A DNA stretch of 64,000 nucleotides from a bacterium (GTDB lineage: Bacteria; Pseudomonadota; Alphaproteobacteria; Rs-D84): contig JAAVBP010000004.1 in the NCBI GenBank assembly GCA_014803525.1, positions 54,918-118,917 on the forward strand. The letters run 5' to 3'. The notes below the pieces were generated by a model. That model did no database searches, was not told the DNA's origin, and saw only the letters and a list, made by a program, of their open reading frames with translations. The translations under genes and the position numbers were made by a program. Of the stretch, positions 1,208 to 64,000 are shown piece by piece; the stretch's first letter is position 1, and each line of letters begins with the position of its first letter.

Positions 1208-1507
1208 TCATTCGTTATCCGATTCGGATTTGTTTGCTTGTTTTATTTTTGCCATCATTTTGCGCAGTTTGATGTATCGACGATCAAAACGACGTGCCTG
1301 CATCATTTTGTACCCCATTACGGTTATTCGTTGCATGATATCCGCCGGGATTTGGGCGGTGCCGGCCTCAAACTCGGCCAAATCCATCGGCAATACACGC
1401 AACAGTACCGCCGCTGCATCAATTGATAGCTGACAATTCTCGCGCGCAAGTCTGATTGCGCGCCCCAGACGCACGGCCGTGTCATCGATTGGTGTTTTGT
1501 TTTGCAT
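1208..1507 (-). CDS. small XRE-family helix-turn-helix transcriptional regulator (paralog family member)
   Basis: HTH pattern LGRAIRLARENCQLSIDAAAVLL...EFEAG; AAGGAGG Shine-Dalgarno before the ATG; paralogous to 47554..47844. Confidence 0.7.
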   Translation of the reverse strand: MQNKTPIDDTAVRLGRAIRLARENCQLSIDAAAVLLRVLPMDLAEFEAGTAQIPADIMQRITVMGYKMMQARRFDRRYIKLRKMMAKIKQANKSESDNE

Positions 1508-1720
1508 TTTTTCCTCCTTTATCTTTTTTGCAAATAAAAAGTCCGCTTTGATGAGAAGCGGTTGGAGGTTAAGAACTACTGCAATGGTAGTGCTGTTTAT
1601 TCATATATATCACAGCCCTCCAACCAAGGTTGGAGCTTATTGCATGAGGTTCTTATACCCCGCATCGGTCATCACCCGATGCACGACCATTATAGCGGAT
1701 TGTTTTCAGTTTTGCAAATT
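1508..1720 (-). promoter_or_regulatory. conserved structured leader element, copy L1: sigma70 promoter + multi-helix RNA + terminator hairpin + Shine-Dalgarno
   Basis: Minus strand has TTGCAA at 1712-1717, a 17-nt spacer and TATAAT at 1689-1694. The leader contains the GGTTGGAGG...CCTCCAACC helix, an alternative CTCCAACC/GGTTGGAG pairing, and the ccgcttctcatcaaagcgg + T-run terminator just before the Shine-Dalgarno. Confidence 0.6.
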
Positions 1721-1734
1721 ATAAAAGACCACAC

Positions 1735-2030
1735 CGCCCCGTTGGGGCACCCCTCCACAGGAGGGGAACCAGTACGTTATCATACACGAACTAATTGCCA
1801 CCGCCTGGGCGGGGGCTGGCACCTCGGCGAAGCGATAGCAGAGACAGGTGACTGGGGGTGGTTATTACGTACCCCGCAATATTTGCCACCCCCCGGTGCT
1901 GAGCACCACCCCCCGCAATCCACCCACAAAAACATCCGTTTTTGTGGGACCCAGAAACGGCGGTGGGCATTTAGCACTGACCCCAGCACGAATAACTTTT
2001 TCACCCTTTCTCTTTTTAATTTTTTCACTA
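1735..2030. repeat. cluster of GC-rich palindromic repeat modules (REP/BIME-like)
   Basis: Modules cccctccacaggagggg, cccccgcctgggcgggggctggc, gactgggggtgg, gccaccccccggtgctgagcaccaccccccgc and cccacaaaaacatccgtttttgtggg recur at 34290-34740 and 48076-48560. Confidence 0.65.
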
Positions 2031-2059
2031 AAAAAACGGGCGAATGCCCGTTTTTTTTA
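2030..2059. terminator. bidirectional intrinsic terminator (aaaaaaacgggcgaatgcccgtttttttt)
   Basis: GC hairpin with flanking A and T runs, downstream of tatA. Confidence 0.7.
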
Positions 2060-2305
2060 TTTCTTTTTCGGTGCGGATTTTTTTACCGCTTTTTTCGGTG
2101 CAACCTTTTTGGTCGCCGCCTTCTTGGTCGCGGCTTGTTTTGCCGCCGCATCCTTTTTGGACGCCTTGCCGTCATCCTTTAATTCTTTTTTAAAGGCATT
2201 TATTCCGCCCGCCAGATTTTTCATCAAATCCGGAATCTTGCCATGACCGAACAGAATCAGAACAAGTACAACAATTAACAGAATTTCCCAAAATCCAGCT
2301 CTCAT
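2057..2305 (-). CDS. tatA: twin-arginine translocase subunit TatA/E with a long Lys/Ala-rich C-terminal tail
   Basis: N-terminal transmembrane segment plus amphipathic helix (WEILLIVVLVLILFGHGKIPDLMKNLAGGINAFKK) typical of TatA. Confidence 0.8.
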   Translation of the reverse strand: MRAGFWEILLIVVLVLILFGHGKIPDLMKNLAGGINAFKKELKDDGKASKKDAAAKQAATKKAATKKVAPKKAVKKSAPKKK

Positions 2306-16457: not shown

Positions 16458-16959
16458 GAATCAAAATCCACATGAATATATTCTTGTAAACCCGGCAAAT
16501 CTATTATATAATAATACATGAATCCAGATGGGAATTTGGGTTCGGGGCCTTAGAAAAGCTCGTCAAGTACGGTGCAAATTGCATCTGTCTGAAATCCATA
16601 TACGGCTGCATCCTTGCACCGTTACACTCTGGCAACAATATATGGTCGGGGTGCCGTTGGTTATAAGATTTGTCAAAGGCTAACGGGGGCACTTACTTGA
16701 TGCTTTTTCTAACACCCCGGCCTTCCACTCTCTGGCGGGTTTATTTTTTTACAGGGCGGTAGTTTGGCAATTGTGCACCTTCTCATCAACAGTGCCGCCG
16801 CCCAACTGTTTTATTCTTTCAGAATTCATATGCGTTATGCACGCATCCGTGACCCGTGCGTGTCATGACCAGAAAATCCCACGCGAACCCACCACGGGAA
16901 TTATATTTCCGCGGGCCCCGGTATGGGCGGAGGCAAATAGATTAAGCCCAAAACGAACT

Positions 16960-17203
16960 ATTTGCATTCAAAAAAACAATCCGTTATAACATGCGGGCAT
17001 CGGGTGACGCCCGGCGCGAGGCTTCAAAACCTCTGTGCAAGAATCCTCCAGCATTGGTTGGAGGGTCGTGATATAAATGAATAAACGACGCTACATCTTG
17101 CAGTAGTTTTGAACCTCCAACCGTCTTTCGTCAGGACGGTGTTTTTTATTAATAAAAACCACGGAGGAAAAAATATAAACCAATTGACAAGACGGCCCAT
17201 CGC
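16960..17203 (+). promoter_or_regulatory. conserved structured leader element, copy L2 (plus orientation)
   Basis: TTGCAT at 16962-16967, 17-nt spacer, TATAAC at 16985-16990; same helices as L1/L3/L4; terminator ccgtctttcgtcaggacgg + T-run. Confidence 0.55.
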
Positions 17204-17467
17204 ATGGGCGCAATGCTACGTCGGGCACGCCAGATGTGCCACATGTCGACAGATGATGCATCGATGCTGCTGCATATTATGCCAAACGAACTTGCACAAT
17301 ATGAACGTGGTGTATGCGAAATACCAATAAATATACTAGAGCACATTTTTATAATGGCATACAAAATGATACAGGTTCGTAAACAAGAAAAAAGATACCA
17401 GCACCAGCGTGTATTGTTTTACAAACTAAAAAAAGGAACAGATAAAGCACGAGTGACAGATTACTGA
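17109..17467 (+). pseudogene. XRE-type HTH regulator paralog, apparently degraded (start codon lost, frameshift)
   Basis: The N-terminus (KNINQLTRRPIAW) is in a different frame from the body (MGAMLRRARQ...EIPINILE), compared with the intact paralog 47554..47844. Confidence 0.45.
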
Positions 17468-28479: not shown

Positions 28480-28603
28480 CAGCTGGAAAATTCCGTTTTT
28501 TTGGCCGACGGCCTGCTCTGTTTGGATACACCACTTGTAAACAAAGGCAACGTTGGTACGTTCCAAGATCGGACTAATTACCCCGCCCCGATGGCTGGCC
28601 CCA

Positions 28604-31033
28604 TCATTCCCCGCTTGGGCTGCATACGCCATTTTTCAAACTATATCCCGACTTACAAACACAAATACCGGTTGTCGGATTACGTTCCATATTTTTACCA
28701 CCGCACTTTTGCACACATGAACTACCAAATACCTCGTATCCAACTTTACATCTGCAATACTCATTGACATATGCGCTATAGACATCAGTCGATGTTATTA
28801 TTCTGTCGCCAGAATAAATAGTCGACCAAAACAGATCCTTGGACCAGCCCGTTATACCAACACCCGTTAAGTGGATTGGGGTACACGTCATATCATTGCT
28901 TCGCGCCCTTTCAGGGGAACAAGTACTACCGTCGTTTTCTATAAGTTCCAATACCTCTGTACGTGATTTTGATACATATTCCGAATTTTCTGGGCACAGC
29001 ATAGATTGATAGAATATCTTGGACACTTCTTCGATATAACATTGTGGTGAATCATCAGTATATCCATCCATTTCACAACTGTTGTTATCATATATCGCCA
29101 TACCACAGGTCAGTGCCACATTCCGGCATGCACCATTCATTACGTTTTTAATACTGGATGCCGCGGCCGACGTGGTCCATGTATTAATCTGGGTAACCTG
29201 TTGGTTATAACATGCGGCCACATCCAACATACAATTGGACGCATAATCAGAAATAATTTTTTCCTGGCCCGATTTGATATTAACCATTGCACGCTGGATA
29301 TAATTTACAACAATGTCATTATATTTATTATAGTTACCGTTGCTGTCATACGTGTAACGCTGACACTTGTCCAAAACGGCACGGCACAATCCCCCGTCGG
29401 TGGATTTGGCGCCGGTTCCGATTTTTTGTAACAAATATGCAACCGTGCACGATCCGTTTCCAACATTTTTTACATACGTTCCTTTATCATTTTCAGAGGA
29501 ACCAACAGTACCATCTGTATATGCTGTCAGAGTATTACCATTCTGGTATACAGGATATGGCTTGCAAGTGTTATCCGATATCAACAGCCCAGCAGCATCG
29601 GTTAAGAATTTTGTATTTATTTGTGAATTATCATACGCGTACATCAAATCACGGATATTGGTTACGTCCATCCCCAGAACAACTTCGCCATTTTCGTCGA
29701 TATACTTTTTGGTCGGATCCAGACACTTTTCATAATTTTCACCACAAACCATTTCGTCGGTCATGCACGCATCCAATGCGGCAATACAACCCTTGGCATC
29801 ATATTCGTTTTTATTTTGCAACACGGCCAGTCGCGCCTTTTGCAGCATTAAATTCGCACTGCGTACATTCGACACCAATGTTTCATTCATTTTGTTCAAA
29901 CCGGCCTCGTACGCGATACAATCGCGATCAATCGCCAGGTCGTAATTTGATGTAATCTGATCCTTGGTCGCGCCGGCGTCTTTGCATTGTGTCAGAATTG
30001 AATTGCAACGCTTTTTCGCCGCGTTATATAATTCGGTCCCACGCAGGTTTGAAATACTGCTGCTGTTGTTATTTAAAAAATCCAAACTAAACAAATCCGA
30101 CGAATCAGAAAAATCCAGATTCATATCCATCAAGGATATTCCATCCGTACCGGCAACACTGCTGGTGGAACTGGATGGATCTTTGATTAATGCCGCAATA
30201 TCGTCCAGCATGCTGCGTGTTTCCGATGTATCACGCGAACCAGACAGTGCCTCTTCTGCCTCGGTCGCGGACATGATCGCACTGATTTCATCCGCAGACA
30301 GGCCAACATAACGAATACGCTGGGCCACGTCATTTAATTGCGAATTCGCATCCTTGACCGCGGTTTCAACCTTGGTATAACGGGATAAATTGGCACTGCA
30401 TGAACAGCGCTTTTGATTTGAATCAACAACGGCACAAAATTGATCCATGCAATCGTTATACTGTTCTTGGCAAGACTTGTTCAATTCGGCTGTTTGTTCA
30501 AGACGCTCTTTGGCCTCTGAAATTGTTTCGCGTTGATTTTTTGCGGTACCCGCGCGCGACTGTAATGCACGCACAGAATTCCCGACATTTGATCCCGTCT
30601 GAACACCGGTATTACCAATTGTGGCGCGACCGCCAACCTCGGCCGTGGATGGGCGCAGTGTCAATCCCGCACGCCGCACCGGCGCCGTATTATTAATCGA
30701 TGATGCCGCACGCGTGGAATTACGGCCAACTGTATTCGTCGCCGCATCCAAACCGGTACGCGAGGATGATACATTTGCGGTCGTGCCACGGGCCGCGGTT
30801 GCGCGTGATGACACGGTTCCGGTGCCTGATGTTGACGTGGCGGTTGCATTGGAACGCGTTGCACGCGACACCGCGCTGCGCGATGCATCGCCGTCCCCAC
30901 GCGTCGATGTTGATGTGGCGGTGGTATCCGCGGTGGCGTTTGAATTTCCCGACGGTAACGCACGCGACGCCGTGGCGCCACTGGCACCAGACATAACAAA
31001 AACTGATAAAATATATGCAATCAGCCTTTTCAT
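28604..31033 (-). CDS. large secreted Cys-rich protein with an S/T/A/R-rich low-complexity N-terminal region
   Basis: Signal peptide MKRLIAYILSVFVMSGASGA; about 170 aa of low complexity; then a Cys-rich globular region of about 600 aa. Confidence 0.6.
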   Translation of the reverse strand: MKRLIAYILSVFVMSGASGATASRALPSGNSNATADTTATSTSTRGDGDASRSAVSRATRSNATATSTSGTGTVSSRATAARGTTANVSSSRTGLDAATNTVGRNSTRAASSINNTAPVRRAGLTLRPSTAEVGGRATIGNTGVQTGSNVGNSVRALQSRAGTAKNQRETISEAKERLEQTAELNKSCQEQYNDCMDQFCAVVDSNQKRCSCSANLSRYTKVETAVKDANSQLNDVAQRIRYVGLSADEISAIMSATEAEEALSGSRDTSETRSMLDDIAALIKDPSSSTSSVAGTDGISLMDMNLDFSDSSDLFSLDFLNNNSSSISNLRGTELYNAAKKRCNSILTQCKDAGATKDQITSNYDLAIDRDCIAYEAGLNKMNETLVSNVRSANLMLQKARLAVLQNKNEYDAKGCIAALDACMTDEMVCGENYEKCLDPTKKYIDENGEVVLGMDVTNIRDLMYAYDNSQINTKFLTDAAGLLISDNTCKPYPVYQNGNTLTAYTDGTVGSSENDKGTYVKNVGNGSCTVAYLLQKIGTGAKSTDGGLCRAVLDKCQRYTYDSNGNYNKYNDIVVNYIQRAMVNIKSGQEKIISDYASNCMLDVAACYNQQVTQINTWTTSAAASSIKNVMNGACRNVALTCGMAIYDNNSCEMDGYTDDSPQCYIEEVSKIFYQSMLCPENSEYVSKSRTEVLELIENDGSTCSPERARSNDMTCTPIHLTGVGITGWSKDLFWSTIYSGDRIITSTDVYSAYVNEYCRCKVGYEVFGSSCVQKCGGKNMERNPTTGICVCKSGYSLKNGVCSPSGE

Positions 31034-33262: not shown

Positions 33263-33850
33263 CTAAAACAGATATCCGATCGCGACCCCGGCGCGACTGT
33301 GACGCGCAGATATTTTTACCGGCACGTCCGATATACTGTAACGCAGGCGCGCACGCGACCATATCTCATATATTTTTATAAACGTATTGGCCGATATGTT
33401 TATCCGCATGCCAATGCCGCCACCATATATAAACCCGCGGTCATGAAAATGCGCGTCATCAAACTTTACGTCCGTAATGCCAATTTCCCCGATTGCATAC
33501 GGTGTGATGGCAAACGGTAAAATCGGCATTTCCAAGATGGACGTAATATTGCGCATACGCATTCCATCCACATCACGCCAAGACACATTTGCACCAACAG
33601 CAACACCATAAACATCAATTCCGGCAGTGATATTCGGCGCATCAAATTTGTATTTTTGTGTTTCGTTAAATTTATATCCCATTACATCTATTTTTGCGTG
33701 CGTTTTGGCACGAATATCAAATCCGGTGGATATGTAAAAGTAATTATCCTTATGCTCTGTTATACAATCTGAATATATTTCGATTATTTCATCCGCATAT
33801 GCCATGCCACTTATCAGCCCCAGCGTTAATGCGATTGCTGCCTTACGCAT
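33263..33850 (-). CDS. small outer-membrane beta-barrel protein (OMP3)
   Basis: Start MRKAAIALTLGLISGMAYA; C-terminal ...AIGYLF. Confidence 0.55.
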   Translation of the reverse strand: MRKAAIALTLGLISGMAYADEIIEIYSDCITEHKDNYFYISTGFDIRAKTHAKIDVMGYKFNETQKYKFDAPNITAGIDVYGVAVGANVSWRDVDGMRMRNITSILEMPILPFAITPYAIGEIGITDVKFDDAHFHDRGFIYGGGIGMRINISANTFIKIYEIWSRARLRYSISDVPVKISARHSRAGVAIGYLF

Positions 33851-34035
33851 ATTTGCCCCCATTGTTACAATCAAACAAAAAACCACTGGAAACAAATTTC
33901 AAGTGGTTGGAGGTTAAGAACAACCTAGGGATTGCCCACCTTATTCAGATATATCGGTGGCCTCCAACCGTGGTTGGAAAAAATGCGCCTGCGTCCGTAC
34001 CAGACGCACCCTAGGATATCGAGGTTCTTAAGCCC
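33851..34035 (-). promoter_or_regulatory. structured leader element, variant copy B1, upstream of OMP3
   Basis: GGTTGGAGG...CCTCCAACC helix, outer helix TAAGAAC/GTTCTTA, inserted tgcgtc...gacgca hairpin, ccact...agtgg + T-run terminator, then Shine-Dalgarno. Confidence 0.5.
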
Positions 34036-34057
34036 CTTTTACCTTTGTAACAAGGAT

Positions 34058-34273
34058 TCAAATATACCTTGCATTATATAATGTTGTTTGAATAAATTCA
34101 AACGCAAAAATACAACGCCCGTCCAAAATTTGAACGGGACTGGAGTCAGCTATTGCACGGTAAGATGCAAGCGATTTATTGTTATTATTCATCACCATCC
34201 AGTCCCATTTGGGATGGATGTATGAATTTCGCACATACGGGCGCTTACCGGGCCTGGATAGCTGATCCAGCAT
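34058..34273 (-). CDS. small hypothetical protein (71 aa) with its own promoter and a strong Shine-Dalgarno
   Basis: Upstream on the minus strand: TTGCAA, 17-nt spacer, TACTAT, then AAGGAG 6 nt before the ATG. Confidence 0.35.
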   Translation of the reverse strand: MLDQLSRPGKRPYVRNSYIHPKWDWMVMNNNNKSLASYRAIADSSPVQILDGRCIFAFEFIQTTLYNARYI

Positions 34274-34289
34274 AATAAGTCTCCTTACT

Positions 34290-34740
34290 ACAAAGGTAAT
34301 AGTATCCTAAAAAAATCCAAATTGCAAATATTAACTGGATTGCCCCGCCTGCGTTCCTTTTGTCACTCCCGCGGCGGCGGGAGTGGGTCTATTAAATTTT
34401 AATGGTTTTATCTGCACAATTTAACGCAATCGTTTTGTAATAACTTTATAGACCCTATTCCCGTTCTTTGAAAAACAATTATCAATTGTTTTTCAAATTC
34501 AGTGCGGGAATGACAAATTTGCCACCCCCCGATGGCTGGCGCCATCACCCCCCGCCCACGGCGGTGGGAATTAATACATTCCACACTCGGACGAATTGCC
34601 CCCGCCTGGGCGGGGGCTGGCAGTCGATAGACTGACTGGGGGTGGCCTGTTACGTACCCCGCGACACTTGCCACCCCCCGGTGCTACGCACCACCCCCCG
34701 CCCGCGGCGGTGGGCATTAGTATATTGCAAGCACAAATAA
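34290..34740. repeat. cluster of GC-rich palindromic repeat modules
   Basis: Same module set as 1735-2030 and 48076-48560, plus modules tttgtcactcccgcggcggcgggagtgggtctatt and tttatagaccctattcccgttctttgaaaaacaattatcaattgtttttcaaattcagtgcgggaatgacaa (the latter also at 54365-54440). Confidence 0.65.
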
Positions 34741-34799
34741 CTTTTTCACTATATCGCTGCCCCTGCCTGTACTAGGCTCAGATTAAAGTTCTCCTCCGG

Positions 34800-35095
34800 C
34801 GGAGGAGAACTTGGACCGTTCGCCGGACTCCTGAAAATTTATTAGAATGATACAGATGCACGAAAAATGGGTTGCAAAAAAACAAAGCTCGTTTACCGGG
34901 CTCTCGTAAAATAATTAGAATGATGTAGATATGTGAAATTCCGGCAACGTAGTGTACAAGACGTACATGAGTTACAAAAATAAAGCCCGTTCGCTAGACT
35001 CCTGAAAATTTATTAGAATGATACAGATGCACGAAAAATGGGTTGCGTAGTGTATTGGACATACATGAGCAACCCATTTTACGCGCAGATGCGTT
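34800..35095. repeat. tandem direct repeat, unit about 90 bp in three diverged copies with an about 180 bp period, ending in a 12-bp-stem hairpin
   Basis: gactcctgaaaatttattagaatgatacagatgcacgaaaaatgggttgc occurs at about 34817 and about 34997 with a diverged copy between; terminal hairpin aaaatgggttgc...gcaacccatttt. Confidence 0.6.
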
Positions 35096-47513: not shown

Positions 47514-47548
47514 GTAAAAAACACCGGGAAACCCCGGCGTTTTTTTAT
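47514..47548. terminator. bidirectional intrinsic terminator (caccgggaaaccccggcg + T-run)
   Basis: Hairpin with flanking A and T runs. Confidence 0.65.
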
Positions 47549-47553
47549 TTATT

Positions 47554-47844
47554 TTACAATACGGCATCCACAGCCTGTTTTGTCATTCGCAAAAAATCTC
47601 GTTTTTTTATATATCGTTTTTCCAGTACGCGAACCTGTTTCATCTTGTATCCCATTATAAACATGTTTTCCAGTATCTCTATCGGGATTTCTGTTATGCC
47701 GTGTTCGTATTCAAACATCTCGTGCGGGGTTACGCGTAATAATTCCGCCGCATCATCGGTTGGCATACCGCAAACGCGTCGGGCGCGACGCAGCATTGCG
47801 CCCATACGACCGGCTGTTTCATTGATTTGTTTATATTTTGCCAT
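47554..47844 (-). CDS. small XRE-family HTH transcriptional regulator (paralog family member)
   Basis: HTH pattern GAMLRRARRVCGMPTDDAAELLRV...; AAGGAG Shine-Dalgarno. Confidence 0.7.
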   Translation of the reverse strand: MAKYKQINETAGRMGAMLRRARRVCGMPTDDAAELLRVTPHEMFEYEHGITEIPIEILENMFIMGYKMKQVRVLEKRYIKKRDFLRMTKQAVDAVL

Positions 47845-48075
47845 GTGTTTTCTCCTTACTTTTTGTTAATAAAAAAAGCCCGCTTTGACGAGAAGCGGTT
47901 GGAGGTTCAAAACTATTCGATCGATAGCGCTGTTTATTTATGTATATCACAGCCCTCCAACCGAGTTGGAGTTTTGACCGATGAGGTTTTGAAGCCTCGC
48001 GCCGGGCGTCACCCGATGCATACATATTATATCGGATTGTTTTCAGATTTGCAAATTATTATAGCCACCCCCCGG
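47845..48075 (-). promoter_or_regulatory. conserved structured leader element, copy L3
   Basis: TTGCAA at 48069-48074, 17-nt spacer, TATAAT at 48046-48051 (minus strand); conserved helices; ccgcttctcgtcaaagcgg + T-run terminator; Shine-Dalgarno. Confidence 0.6.
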
Positions 48076-48560
48076 TGCTACGCACCACCCCCCCGCCAAC
48101 GGCGGTGGGCATTATACCGAGCCTAGCACCAAGCTAATGGCCCCCGCCCGGGCGGGGGCTGGCGTGTGAAACACGACTGGGGGTGGCCAATATTTTCTGG
48201 ATTGCGACGGCTGCACTCCTTTTGTCACTCCCGCGCAGGCGGGAGTGGGTCTATTAAATTAATACTTCTTTGTTCTGATGTATGCACGAATGCAAAAATA
48301 GGAAAAAACTAAACAACTTTATAGACCCTATTCCTGCCTTCGCAGGAATGACAAATTTGCCACCCCCGGTGCTACGCACCACCCCCCGCAATACACCCAA
48401 AAAAACATCCGTTTTTGCGGGGCCCAGAAACGGCGGTGGGCATTGGTATGTCACAAGCATGAATAACTTTTGCACTCTTTCGCTATTCTCTTTTTCACTA
48501 AAAAAACGCCGGCAACTGCCGGGCCCCGCGGAAATATAATTTCCGTGGGTGGATTTCCGG
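48076..48560. repeat. cluster of GC-rich palindromic repeat modules, including an about 170-bp segment nearly identical to 1890-2060
   Basis: Direct comparison: gccaccccc(c)ggtgctacgcaccaccccccgcaat(a/c)cacccaaaaaaacatccgtttttg..cccagaaacggcggtgggcat...tttttcactaaaaaaacg + terminator hairpin. Confidence 0.65.
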
Positions 48561-50887: not shown

Positions 50888-50889
50888 AT

Positions 50890-50930
50890 AAAAGAAAAAC
50901 GCCCGGGAAATCCCGGGCGTTTTTCTTTTA
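50890..50930. terminator. bidirectional intrinsic terminator (cgcccgggaaatcccgggcg + T-run)
   Basis: Hairpin flanked by A and T runs. Confidence 0.65.
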
Positions 50931-51119
50931 TATCTGATACTGATCCTTTTGCATTGCGACCGCAAAATGCGACGGCGACTTAAACGAAAAAGTAAAGTCT
51001 TTTAGTAAACTGGTGGAATTTCTATATTTAATCCCTTTTAACGCGTTCAACAGTTTGGTTTCCGCATCTTTGCGTTGCCATTTAAACTCACTCTTTAAAT
51101 CACCCATTGAATTCAACAC
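50928..51119 (-). CDS. small hypothetical protein (63 aa)
   Basis: ORF overlapping the upstream gene by 7 nt (coupled pair). Confidence 0.3.
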   Translation of the reverse strand: MLNSMGDLKSEFKWQRKDAETKLLNALKGIKYRNSTSLLKDFTFSFKSPSHFAVAMQKDQYQI

Positions 51120-53754: not shown

Positions 53755-53782
53755 CACGGGGCATCTGCCCCGTGTTTTTATT
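53755..53782. terminator. bidirectional intrinsic terminator (cacggggcatctgccccgtg + T-run)
   Basis: Hairpin plus T-run. Confidence 0.65.
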
Positions 53783-53996
53783 CTTTATCCAACGCCATAT
53801 CCATTTTGACGGCGTATTTAATTATGCGTTTCAACGTGTCGCGTGGGATTAAATCCTTGCCTTGTTCATATCGGTGCAGTTGCTTGCCACCGCACCCCAA
53901 CAAGTGTTGCAATTGCTGTGATGTTATCTTGCCTTTTTCTCGGATTGATTGTATCACATGACCGAAATAATCGGCGCTGACTATTATTGTTGACAT
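53778..53996 (-). CDS. small XRE-type HTH protein (72 aa)
   Basis: ITSQQLQHLLGCGGKQLHRYEQG HTH; AAGGAG Shine-Dalgarno 8 nt before the internal ATG (the ORF-track start at 54041 lies inside the leader terminator). Confidence 0.6.
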   Translation of the reverse strand: MSTIIVSADYFGHVIQSIREKGKITSQQLQHLLGCGGKQLHRYEQGKDLIPRDTLKRIIKYAVKMDMALDKE

Positions 53997-54212
53997 TTTT
54001 TCACTCCTTAATTTTTTATTGTATAATAAAAAAGCCCGCATTGATGAGATGCGGTTGGAGGTTCAAAACTATAAGAGTATAGCGCTGTTTATTTATATAT
54101 ATCACAGCCCTCCAACCAATGTTGGAGTATTCTCTTAGAGGTTTTGAAGCCCCGCATCGGCCATCACCCGATGCATATTCATTATAGCGGATTGTTTTCA
54201 GATTTGCAAATT
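53997..54212 (-). promoter_or_regulatory. conserved structured leader element, copy L4
   Basis: TTGCAA at 54205-54210, 17-nt spacer, TATAAT at 54182-54187 (minus strand); helix 54053-54117; ccgcatctcatcaatgcgg + T-run terminator. Confidence 0.6.
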
Positions 54213-54229
54213 ATTATAGCCATTCAAAA

Positions 54230-54450
54230 TTAATCCGGGTTTCTCCCTGTCACGTTCGCCCCCCGCAAGAATCCCCTTTTGTCACTCCTGCGCAGGCAGG
54301 AGTGGGTCTATAAAATATTTGTTCATACAGGACGTTTTGTGTTGCAACAGACTTATCATTTACTATGGTTTATAGACCCTATTCCCGTTCTTTGAAAAAC
54401 AATTATCAATTGTTTTTCAAATTCAGTGCGAGAATGACAACATACAAGCG
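54230..54450. repeat. palindromic repeat modules (cactcctgcgcaggcaggagtg; tttatagaccctattcccg...gaatgacaa)
   Basis: Same modules as 34350-34510 and 48210-48360. Confidence 0.6.
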
Positions 54451-61219: not shown

Positions 61220-61374
61220 TTCCCCTTTTATTTCTTAATGGAAATCATACAAGGAAAAAAGCCACTGCGCAATGAAATAGTTATCAAATGTTTTTATTTG
61301 AAATTTACTGTTTTTCGTGTAATATTATACACGTGACGACATGCGTCGTCCAACATTGGGGCTTCATATCCCCG

Positions 61375-61568
61375 CACAGTTGTTTCTGCGTGGCTGTGAA
61401 AAAGTGCAGAAATATAAAAACTAAGCAGCCCTTCAACGACTTACCGTGGTTGGAGGGCGCTGAATAGGGCCCACGGGTCTAATAAGGCGCGCTATACTGT
61501 GTGTAGATATGAACCTCCAACCATCTGAATTTTTTCCGATGGTTTTATTTTTTGCAAAGGGGGAAAAT
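61375..61568 (+). promoter_or_regulatory. structured leader element, variant copy L5
   Basis: GGTTGGAGG...CCTCCAACC helix at 61448-61520, then a T-run and AGGGGGA Shine-Dalgarno before the ATG at 61569. Confidence 0.45.
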
Positions 61569-61919
61569 ATGTCGGGAAAGCCATATCGCACAACGTTATT
61601 TGACATTAAACTGGGTGAATTAATTGCCATGCATCGCCGCATGCTGGGCATGTCACAGAAAGATTTAGCAGAAAAACTTGGTGTATCATTTCAGCAAATA
61701 CAAAAATACGAAACCGCCAAGAACAATCTATCTGCATCGCGCCTTTTTGAAATTGCAACCGTATTTGAAATGTCGGTTGGTCAACTGGTCGACGGCACAG
61801 AACAAAAATATATACTGGATTCAACAGGCACGGCAATACTGAAAATCATGTATAAAAAAATGAACTTTCAACAGCGGCTTGCACTGCTGCAAGTTGCACG
61901 CACAATGATTTCTGTTTAG
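61569..61919 (+). CDS. XRE-family HTH transcriptional regulator with a C-terminal extension
   Basis: LGMSQKDLAEKLGVSFQQIQKYETAKN HTH. Confidence 0.75.
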   Translation: MSGKPYRTTLFDIKLGELIAMHRRMLGMSQKDLAEKLGVSFQQIQKYETAKNNLSASRLFEIATVFEMSVGQLVDGTEQKYILDSTGTAILKIMYKKMNFQQRLALLQVARTMISV

Positions 61920-63201: not shown

Positions 63202-63519
63202 TTATTTTTTCTTTTGTTTCGCCGTTTTATCTTTTTTCCATGTGCACATACCCATGGTATGCAGTGGCAATGGCGGATCTGGCAGATTTACCGTACATAT
63301 ATTACGCATCTTATCTTCTAACACTGCCGGATGCCCGTTTAACTGGGTTGCCAATATCTTCGTTAATAATAATATCCGCTGCATGGGCAGCTTTTTGTTC
63401 GGATTTTCTGTAAAAAAAAGATATAAATCAATAATTATCTTTTCAACATCCGTTTCTTCCAATATCATGTTCACATCCGCATTATCTAATAATTGATGCA
63501 GTTGGCGCATCGCCGTCAA
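63202..63519 (-). CDS. hypothetical protein
   Basis: ORF overlapping 63482..63712 in another frame; possibly one frameshifted gene. Confidence 0.3.
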   Translation of the reverse strand: MTAMRQLHQLLDNADVNMILEETDVEKIIIDLYLFFTENPNKKLPMQRILLLTKILATQLNGHPAVLEDKMRNICTVNLPDPPLPLHTMGMCTWKKDKTAKQKKK

Positions 63520-63712
63520 AATATATTTTGGTAACCTGGGTATGTGGGCGACGCACGAATTTATCCATTTCCTGGTGCGCCATGCGCATTAATAAACTTA
63601 TATTCGTGACCGACGTTTCATAATCAGGATTTTTGTTATAGAAATCATTTAGTCTATAAATTAAATCAGCTGGATTATCCGGCATGGATGTTATTTGCTG
63701 TTTTTTGGTCAT
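63482..63712 (-). CDS. small hypothetical protein preceded by a leader element
   Basis: Start MTKKQQITSM with a GGGGG Shine-Dalgarno; leader copy B2 upstream. Confidence 0.35.
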   Translation of the reverse strand: MTKKQQITSMPDNPADLIYRLNDFYNKNPDYETSVTNISLLMRMAHQEMDKFVRRPHTQVTKIYFDGDAPTASIIR

Positions 63713-63900
63713 ATTCGCCCCCTGTTGTTTTTTATTAAAAAACCACCAGAAAAATTTCAAGTGGTTGGAGGTTCACTACTATATTCAACTACAGCGCTGC
63801 TTATTCAACATATTCACAGCCCTCCAACCGAGGTTGGAGATTTTCTGCATAAACAGGTTGAATGGAGTAGTGAGCTCCGCCCACGGGGTTACCCGCCGGC
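63713..63900 (-). promoter_or_regulatory. structured leader element, variant copy B2, with promoter
   Basis: Minus strand has TTGCAA, a 17-nt spacer and TATAAT about 63925-63897; helices CACTACT/AGTAGTG and ATTCAAC/GTTGAAT; GGTTGGAGG/CCTCCAACC; hairpin + T-run; Shine-Dalgarno. Confidence 0.5.
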
Positions 63901-64000
63901 GGAATAATTATATACCAACAAAATCCCAATTGCAAATATTAACTGGATTGCCGCGGCCGGGCTCGGACCAATGGCCCCCGACGGTTGCCACAAGCAGTCA
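63900..64000. repeat. repeat module ccaattgcaaatattaactggattgcc (promoter-bearing module, also at 34316) plus GC-rich modules
   Basis: Direct sequence identity with 34316-34343. Confidence 0.55.

Follow-up and report, generated by a model that had tools for sequence, protein, structure and literature searches.

A probable lineage-specific family of mosaic extragenic palindromes, and a candidate leader RNA beside it, in a gut alphaproteobacterial genome

The window analysed here is a 64,000-nt stretch of a 201,727-bp contig from a MAG with locus tags HDR61_. At 90% identity the RecA of this MAG clusters with those of Candidatus Enterousia and other gut Alphaproteobacteria. For the order Rs-D84, which includes Enterousia, reduced genomes of 0.67-1.6 Mb have been reported (PMC12306168). 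The same DNA is present at 100% identity in an independent ENA assembly (ERZ27267576) and in the Logan assembly SRR11425431. Breaks in the Logan contig at window positions 1626 and 54401 were considered as a sign of extra copies and rejected, as they reflect only repeats already in the window. Gene maps around the repeats come from the gene tables of the ENA contigs, and the surveyed DNA of this genome amounts to 102 kb: the window plus 38 kb outside it.

Comparison of the window with itself reveals many short, very similar segments among four regions, at 1.5-2.1, 34.3-34.8, 47.9-48.6 and 54.0-54.5 kb, and exact 16-27-mers are common to the repeat loci. A first-pass annotation of this DNA had described six separate GC-rich modules recurring over six ranges. 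A mismatch-tolerant census places the module strings it named at the four loci and almost nowhere else in the window. Recurrence is borne out at 1797-2004, 34364-34749, 48064-48475 and 54275-54440; the range 28540-28620 holds one decayed unit, and 63840-64000 covers the putative promoter and 5′ part of a leader RNA (below). GC-rich hairpin-forming strings do recur, but three of the six modules belong to one unit or nest in its loop (the case of cccacaaaaacatccgtttttgtggg), and cccctccacaggagggg was found once, at 1750-1766, and is not a recurring module. The arrays fill gaps that start at the 3′ end or the terminator of the gene upstream (tatA, serS, ftsK) and extend to the next promoter. The first is bounded by the tatA terminator and the leader e1 promoter, the one at 48 kb by the serS terminator and the leader e47 promoter. 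The 34-kb array has the region downstream of ftsK on one side and the promoter of a divergent leader on the other, and the 54-kb array is flanked by the promoter of leader e54 and a glycosyltransferase gene. These intergenic positions, and the folding of the modules as hairpins, agree with their description as hairpin-forming, mosaic and extragenic. Fold energies are not clearly better than those of same-composition shuffles, and the density of perfect GC-rich hairpins (12.5 per 100 kb in the window vs 11.7 in relatives) does not discriminate.

The principal repeat is a GC unit of ~50 bp that reads, in order, GCCACCCCC, a variable hairpin, CCA(C/G)CCCCCGCC-nnn-GGCGG(T/G)GGG and ATT. In alignment A2 the gccaccccccggtgct...ggcggtgggcatt segments were set against the gcccccgccYgggcgggggc...gactgggggtgg segments in reverse complement. 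Both types form one family with 27 invariant columns and the consensus (G)CCACCCCC, variable hairpin, CCA(C/G)CCCCCGCC, three bases, GGCGG(T/G)GG(G), (C/A)ATT. The strings gcccccgccYgggcgggggc and gactgggggtgg are thus two ends of a single unit, and this unit is the gccaccccccggtgct...ggcggtgggcatt unit in inverted orientation. The composite pattern has an expectation of 0 matches (100 shuffles). Within the unit a 21-nt palindrome, CCCCCCGCC-nnn-GGCGGTGGG, is conserved; its one C-T mismatch is kept in seven of nine units, the palindrome being perfect in the inverted units at 34598 and 48140.

The variable hairpin behaves differently. Its sequence differs in every copy while its complementarity is always perfect, with no G-T pairs: the stems are GGTGC/GCACC, GATGGC/GCCATC, CAGTC/GACTG, GTGT/ACAC and CACCT/AGGTG, and GTCAC/GTGAC in a homologous metagenomic unit (L126, below). 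A smaller palindrome in the same arrays, CACTCCCGC-nnnn-GCGGGAGTG, has a fully compensated variant at 54284, in which CCTGC/GCAGG stands for CCCGC/GCGGG. Compensatory stem changes that avoid G-T wobble fit DNA palindromes working on either strand, and the occurrence of units in both orientations, together with the lack of wobble pairs, points to action at the DNA level.

Four GC-unit loci and one further array can be described. In the first array an inverted unit with an enlarged variable hairpin, CACCT..AGGTG (1797..1863, minus strand), has the ends gcccccgcc..gggcgggggc and gactgggggtgg. It is followed by a long-form unit, U′ (1885..1971, plus), in which a hairpin, CCCACAAAAAC-ATCC-GTTTTTGTGGG (1923-1948), is nested in the loop of the GC palindrome; this hairpin is the module cccacaaaaacatccgtttttgtggg, of which there are two copies, at 1923-1948 and 48396-48421. 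A tail containing AATAACTTTTTCAC and common with 48445-48508 comes next (1972..2029, plus) and abuts the tatA terminator (2030-2057), which is outside the repeat. A decayed plus-strand unit at 28578..28630, recognised by eye against 34520-34572, lies between an 809-aa ORF, whose 3′ end faces it, and an RNase T-like gene. It overlaps the final ~25 nt of an ORF and is the sole unit to do so.

The 34-kb array opens with the small palindrome, here CACTCCCGC-GGCG-GCGGGAGTG with its flanks (34355..34398), further copies of which lie at 48217-48260 and, with the CCTGC/GCAGG stem, at 54275-54316. An ATTCCCG..CGGGAAT palindrome follows at 34445..34516, then three GC units: one on the plus strand with the variable hairpin GATGGC-TGGC-GCCATC (34522..34572), an inverted one with CAGTC..GACTG (34598..34647, minus), and a third on the plus strand (34670-34718) succeeded by AATAACTTTTTCAC (34736-34749), the two together spanning 34670..34749. 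At 48 kb a plus-strand unit (48064..48113) begins 10 nt upstream from the leader e47 -35 box. It is followed by an inverted unit with the variable hairpin GTGT..ACAC (48140..48188, minus) and by a second U′ (nested hairpin at 48396-48421) plus tail (48358..48508, plus). Beside the serS terminator (48509-48522) a palindrome, GGCCCCGCGGAAATATAATTTCCGTGGG (48519..48548), sits within a larger ACGCCGG/CCGGCGT hairpin; it has a second copy, inverted, at 16892-16921. The 54-kb array (54275..54440), upstream of leader e54, consists of the two small palindrome modules alone, without a GC unit.

Orientation and relation to gene ends, which the first-pass annotation had left to be checked, come out as follows: plus and minus units alternate, in the order + - + at 34522/34598/34670 and 48064/48140/48358 and - + at 1797/1885, and the arrays follow gene 3′ ends or terminators. 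Linkers are short and semi-conserved, one of them, TTACGTACCCCGC, being common to two arrays.

The placement of the arrays and the perfect stems could also be read in terms of RNA. The modules would then be 3′ extensions of the tatA, serS and ftsK transcripts (minus strand), or plus-strand ncRNAs ending at bidirectional terminators, and would stabilise or regulate those transcripts. The arrays come directly after gene terminators, their hairpins are stable, the terminator at 2030-2057 is bidirectional, and the variable hairpin changes in sequence while keeping its structure. We nevertheless consider an RNA role improbable: both unit orientations occur within one array, the stems have no G-U pairs, the conserved mismatch would be C-U or A-G with no wobble on either strand, and promoter-like sites inside the arrays are only weak. 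Nor is there a match in Rfam, to which the first-pass annotation had pointed. Throughout the window no hit reaches a gathering threshold, and in E-value mode both array and leader give only chance-level hits. Relatives with units are also lacking among those surveyed.

Palindromes within the loops of other palindromes are a recurring theme. Besides the hairpin nested in U′, the ATTCCnGC..GCnGGAAT palindrome has a short, un-nested form at 48318-48352 and a long form whose loop contains a 42-nt palindrome. The two copies of the long form, 34445-34516 and 54369-54440, are 98.6% identical over 72 bp. Open reading frames through the arrays are spurious. Of the identical peptides that had been noticed in them, CHSRTEFEKQLIIVFQRTGIGSI is confirmed in the ORF 34408-34674, which runs through the repeat, and comes from the same 72-bp segment. 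Only one array ORF, of 206 aa, is in a protein collection, as a singleton; HMMER found no relatives of it among 1.84 billion representatives, returning the query itself and one irrelevant repeat protein. A six-frame pseudo-protein query was swamped by low-complexity words and missed even the known 206-aa ORF, and is uninformative.

The largest repeated segment had been given as about 170 bp of about 90% identity, with a terminator hairpin included. The duplication stands, at 88% identity between 1881-2046 and 48355-48510 (93.5% in the unit part, 84% in the tail); the terminator hairpin does not belong to it, the similarity stopping at the terminator A/T tracts and the terminator stems being different. 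It raises the possibility that there is no mobility here at all, and that the arrays are remnants of segmental duplications of array-promoter-leader-HTH cassettes, gene-converted and reshaped by deletions. The regions at 1 and 48 kb are indeed homologous at both ends and differ only in the modules between (leader plus promoter 87% identical, U′ plus tail 88%), the genes after leaders e1, e17 and e47 are paralogous (39-56% protein identity), and all assemblies of the organism are identical. Identity among the units, however, is 84-95%, against 60-72% DNA identity for the adjacent paralogous HTH genes, so that a single old event would need ongoing homogenisation. Units also stand before a very divergent leader (34101-34283) and, at 28578, where there is no leader; a leader of the same subfamily on a second contig has no modules; and the homologous L126 unit has a different context. 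We regard passive duplication as unlikely. That the units are more alike than the neighbouring paralogous genes points to recent spread or homogenisation.

The first-pass annotation had also assigned promoter boxes to some modules, which it viewed as mobile or recombining regulatory cassettes. Neither TTGCAA box, at 34316 or at 63920, is in the GC palindromes; both are minus-strand promoters, by prediction, of a separate element that occurs across the clade. Copies of a ~190-bp segment lie at 1536-1722, 47872-48067 and 54028-54222; another, in inverted orientation, is at 16973-17150, and three that have diverged further are at 33866-34085, 61345-61559 and 63726-63931. Each copy is predicted to have a TTGCAA (or TTGAAT)-17-TATAAT promoter, a transcript of ~150-170 nt and an intrinsic terminator. 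With a divergent eighth copy, the window holds eight of these leaders. We take the TTGCAA boxes to be the putative sigma-70 promoters of a covarying leader RNA of ~170 nt that ends in a terminator.

Five of the leaders are on the minus strand with assigned downstream genes. Leader e1 (1526..1717), outside the GC repeat family, has its TTGCAA-17-TATAAT promoter at 1717..1689 and terminator at 1561..1543 and precedes a 99-aa HTH gene (1507..1208). Leader e47 (47863..48054; promoter 48054..48026) precedes a 96-aa HTH gene (47844..47554), leader e54 (54019..54214, promoter included) a 72-aa HTH_31 gene (53996..53778), and leader e63 (63726..63931), whose promoter is the TTGCAA at 63920, a 76-aa ORF (63712..63482). 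Leader e33 (33866..34085), with a TTGAAT-17-TATAAT promoter, is followed by a gene for a 195-aa signal-peptide protein. Two leaders are on the plus strand: e17 (17005..17156), before an 87-aa HTH gene (17204..17467), and e61 (61345..61559), before a 116-aa HTH_3 gene (61569..61919). The divergent eighth copy with its promoter, the TTGCAA at 34316, occupies 34101..34330 on the minus strand. Its leader part (34101-34283) was found by covariance model at 25.6 bits, with three motif segments changed together (AUCCAUCCC, GGGACUGGAU and CUCCAGUCCC). The 34-kb array precedes this divergent leader, and what follows the leader is e33 with its signal-peptide protein, in place of an HTH gene.

When 185,579 species genomes were scanned by pattern, the leader was located in at least 119 stretches, mostly in gut Alphaproteobacteria MAGs among the matches listed; some of these MAGs are Candidatus Enterousia, and others bear the label 'Alphaproteobacteria' bacterium or 'Rickettsiales' bacterium. 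True leader copies are also present in four IMG/VR contigs. Relatives have mostly one copy per 8-kb locus (77 matches in 71 loci listed), and the eight copies in 64 kb are therefore a local excess. A Shine-Dalgarno sequence and start codon lie ~20-50 nt past the T-run in 82 of the 110 copies listed. Small XRE-type HTH proteins are the largest group among products of the genes after leaders, others being signal-peptide or cysteine-rich proteins. A text search for the leader motifs gave nothing relevant.

Structure was assessed on an alignment of 109 copies gathered by exact-motif pattern (A3). We specified by hand a long-range helix P1, a hairpin P2 (CUCCAACC/GGUUGGAG), a hairpin P3 and the terminator. 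In this structure 90.6% of positions are paired, against 30-48% with the partners slid, and double-sided changes number 333, where shuffles give 103. Covariation is seen in five of the seven P1 pairs, and U-G and G-U variants in P2 fix the transcribed strand. Two alternative leader helices likewise covary. GGUUGGAGG can pair with the 3′ CCUCCAACC, an invariance that comes partly from the search pattern, which required that pairing; in the divergent eighth copy, however, which the covariance model found, all three segments differ in concert. RNAalifold on a MAFFT alignment returned only the invariant 9-bp pairing and two hairpins, the other helices being set by hand, with a count of their pairs. 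In predicted folds the terminator-closed form is the more stable by 7-17 kcal/mol. The most economical reading of these predictions is that the leader would terminate by default and need some factor for read-through.

Three of the four unit-bearing loci are just upstream of leader promoters. This could reflect a link to the cassettes, or merely that these are the few long intergenic gaps. Another reading is autoregulation, the palindromes being operator arrays for the small XRE regulators encoded after the neighbouring leaders. Arrays do lie upstream of leader-HTH promoters at 1.7, 48 and 54 kb, and one unit starts 10 nt from a -35 box. Yet no common module stands at a fixed distance from the promoters, each of which has a different neighbour, and the arrays reach 350-500 bp away. 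The leader-HTH units e17, e61 and L142 have no GC units, and relatives with the same regulators and leaders have none either. Operators are thus a very improbable explanation of the palindromes.

The GC units number nine at four loci in the surveyed 102 kb, all within the window. None occur in the 18 kb flanking it, nor in the 20 kb covered of another contig of this genome (k119_2094), reached by a profile search with the HTH paralogs, where there is a leader copy 87% identical to e54. In relatives, GC modules are missing from ~870 kb at 119 loci of related MAGs and from the dksA-tatA interval of a related species. A scan of viral contigs gave no match to the unit, and blastn against plasmids gave none. 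Eight matches came from a scan of JGI metagenomes: six by chance in GC-rich contigs, one an unrelated repeat (L129), and one a true homolog (L126). The latter reads TTGCCACCCCCC-GTCAC-ttc-GTGAC-ACCCCCCGCC-cag-GCGGTGGGAA and adjoins a tRNA-Glu gene and other palindromes, one of them of ATTCC..GGAATGACA type. As to confinement of the modules to the window, which the first-pass annotation would have taken for local duplication, the 38 kb outside it in this genome have no copies, but one homologous unit does exist elsewhere. The family therefore extends beyond the window, is rare in public data, and is lineage-specific. The units are not bound to a single type of cassette, the decayed copy at 28578 having no adjacent leader. 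Their identity, higher than that of the genes, the lack of a fixed cassette and the foreign context of L126 together favour recent copying or homogenisation over a passive remnant.

Among known systems the closest likeness is to BIMEs, clusters of extragenic imperfect palindromes in alternating orientation with linkers (PMC2817692, PMC3333891). A REP is a single palindrome of 20-40 nt, with a copy number above 100 per genome; E. coli has about 600, ~1% of its genome (PMC3333891, PMC2817692). REPs carry a conserved GTAG tetranucleotide 5′ of the palindrome foot, and in E. coli the mismatch of the imperfect palindrome is needed for TnpA-REP binding (PMC3333891). The repeats described here are likewise extragenic GC-rich imperfect palindromes found 3′ of genes and keeping a stem mismatch, with two subtypes that alternate with short linkers in a composition that varies by locus. 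They are unlike REPs in their ~50-bp unit with two hairpins, one of them free to vary, in the loop-nested palindromes, and in having no GTAG, no RAYT found in 102 kb and a low observed copy number, nine in 102 kb. A2 has no conserved GTAG or CTAC at the palindrome foot; the palindrome is flanked by CCA and, at its other end, by ATT, and CTAC appears only inside the variable hairpin of three units. A RAYT gene had been suggested as something to look for, and among the called genes of the 102 kb there is none, nor any Pfam hit to a Y1 (PF01797) or other transposase. The REP/BIME-like label thus holds for the alternating, linked, extragenic units and fails on the tetranucleotide.

REPIN populations consist of many identical or nearly identical copies, each population tied to one REP-flanked RAYT gene (PMC3116915, PMC3337134). 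Our elements resemble them in being non-coding and lineage-restricted, and in that inverted unit pairs with a short spacer (34522/34598, 48064/48140) could form one long hairpin. Three inverted pairs are seen, 84-94% alike with different internal hairpins; unlike REPINs, the arrays are triplets mixed with other modules.

Two further comparisons were made. Neisseria genomes carry mosaic intergenic arrays in which dRS3 repeats (ATTCCC-N8-GGGAAT) flank RS units, as well as Correia elements. Mosaic arrays of short repeats are common to both cases, and ATTCCnGC..GCnGGAAT has the same form as dRS3 as generally described. The host here is alphaproteobacterial, however; the window has no Neisseria-type DNA uptake sequence of any dialect, and the repeats lack Correia-type terminal inverted repeats and TA duplications. 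A Neisseriaceae origin of the DNA, which strings resembling dRS3 and Correia elements had suggested, was rejected on the lack of uptake sequences and on the proteins, with RecA grouping with Candidatus Enterousia. RPEs are 100-150 bp long and typically inserted in frame within protein-coding genes. Like them, these are palindromic repeats of a reduced alphaproteobacterial genome; unlike them, they are all intergenic, apart from the decayed unit 28578-28630 that overlaps an ORF end. The RPE-like reading, which the first-pass annotation had offered, and the Correia-like one were both rejected: there is no in-frame copy inside a gene, no bounding terminal inverted repeat and no target-site duplication, the flanks being ..TT / unit / ATT.. 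with no duplicated target.

We conclude, with a probability of about 55%, that the GC modules form a family of palindromic DNA repeats, extragenic and specific to the lineage, with the build of BIMEs. As repeats they are far beyond chance, but ordinary in kind. We file them as BIME-like for working purposes and do not claim REP membership, given the lack of a conserved GTAG, the lack of a Y1 transposase in 102 kb and a high copy number that is unproven; membership of a REP/RAYT family and mobility are likewise unproven. The units would act at the DNA level as single-strand hairpins, copied or homogenised among intergenic sites through a REP/RAYT-like enzyme acting in trans from a gene elsewhere, or alternatively through template switching and gene conversion between hairpins. 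Any effect on the host would be structural at most, such as a block to read-through or protection of 3′ ends, and the units would not deliver promoters.

A broader reading, which we put forward tentatively, joins the two elements. The gaps would be the upstream halves of multi-copy cassettes, each with a palindrome array, then a sigma-70 promoter, a ~170-nt leader and a gene for either a small XRE regulator or a secreted protein, the leaders an undescribed riboswitch-like class of attenuator across gut Rs-D84/Enterousia-like bacteria, and the GC units elements that insert into hairpin loops. The leader would then possess mutually complementary CUCCAACC, GGUUGGAGG and CCUCCAACC and two alternative folds with support from covariation, the default keeping the terminator closed. 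If this were true, the GC units would be a second novelty beside the leader class, as palindromes that insert into the loops of other hairpins.

The repeats show that mosaic palindromes in the style of BIMEs can exist in the reduced genome of a gut alphaproteobacterium. Their unusual design, with a perfect hairpin that varies freely and palindromes nested in loops, could inform how repeats originate without an obvious transposase. A practical effect is the spurious ORFs, the 206-aa one being already in a public protein set. The interest of the GC repeats is modest, and the leader RNA is the better lead: strongly covarying, multi-copy and clade-wide in a gut lineage that is uncultured, and placed before genes of small regulators and of surface proteins, it is a candidate new class of cis-regulatory RNA that is directly testable.

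The leader RNA, the element behind the TTGCAA modules in which the first-pass annotation had noted promoter boxes, is a structured RNA of ~170 nt with a sigma-70 promoter and a terminator of its own. The motifs GGUUGGAGG and AACCUCCAACC are invariant, covariation is strong and two alternative folds are found; Rfam contains no match to it. Eight copies lie in the window: e17 (17005-17156) and e61 (61345-61559) on the plus strand, and e1 (1526-1717), e33 (33866-34085), a divergent eighth copy (34101-34330), e47 (47863-48054), e54 (54019-54214) and e63 (63726-63931) on the minus strand. The independent ENA assembly calls a 71-aa gene at 34058-34273(-) that overlaps the divergent copy, and a 206-aa ORF at 1562-2182(+) runs across e1, the GC array (extragenic palindromic repeats) and the antisense of tatA; probably neither is a genuine gene.

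Directly 3′ of leader RNAs are genes for a family of small XRE-type HTH proteins of 70-116 aa (P0020-P0103), found in the window at 1208-1507(-), 17204-17467(+), 47554-47844(-), 53778-53996(-) and 61569-61919(+). The family numbers at least eight paralogs in one related MAG (locus tags K2L95_), and contigs shorter than 1.2 kb account for many of the family's database entries.

Downstream of e33 is instead a signal-peptide protein gene, within which k119_36227 and k119_613, the two ENA contigs that together span the window, join (at about 33564-33648). Because the contigs meet inside this gene, a close paralog elsewhere is suggested; the GC repeats are not the site of the junction. Unrelated to the GC units is a 60-bp direct repeat downstream of ftsK (34816-34875 and 34987-35046; 96.7% identical, 171 bp apart), with a partial third copy near 34912-34935; it includes TTAGAATGATACAGATG and possibly a minus-strand promoter. 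Palindromes that resemble bidirectional terminators and are almost identical to one another (ACACCGGGAAATCCCGGTGT and ACGCCCGGGAAATCCCGGGCGT) follow dksA (1161-1192), a DnaJ-domain gene (47516-47546) and a thioredoxin-reductase-like gene (50888-50931).

Among gut Rs-D84/Enterousia-like MAGs the leader RNA is widespread (loci L002-L120), and some relatives have tandem copies, four at L053 38-1104 and two each at L116 738-1182 and L023 6888-7284. Full-scoring copies (115-144 bits) also occur on four IMG/VR ‘viral’ contigs (L137 12027-12205, L138 9510-9693, L140 8448-8625 and L141 775-953), which represent prophage-like regions or else bacterial sequence wrongly classed as viral.
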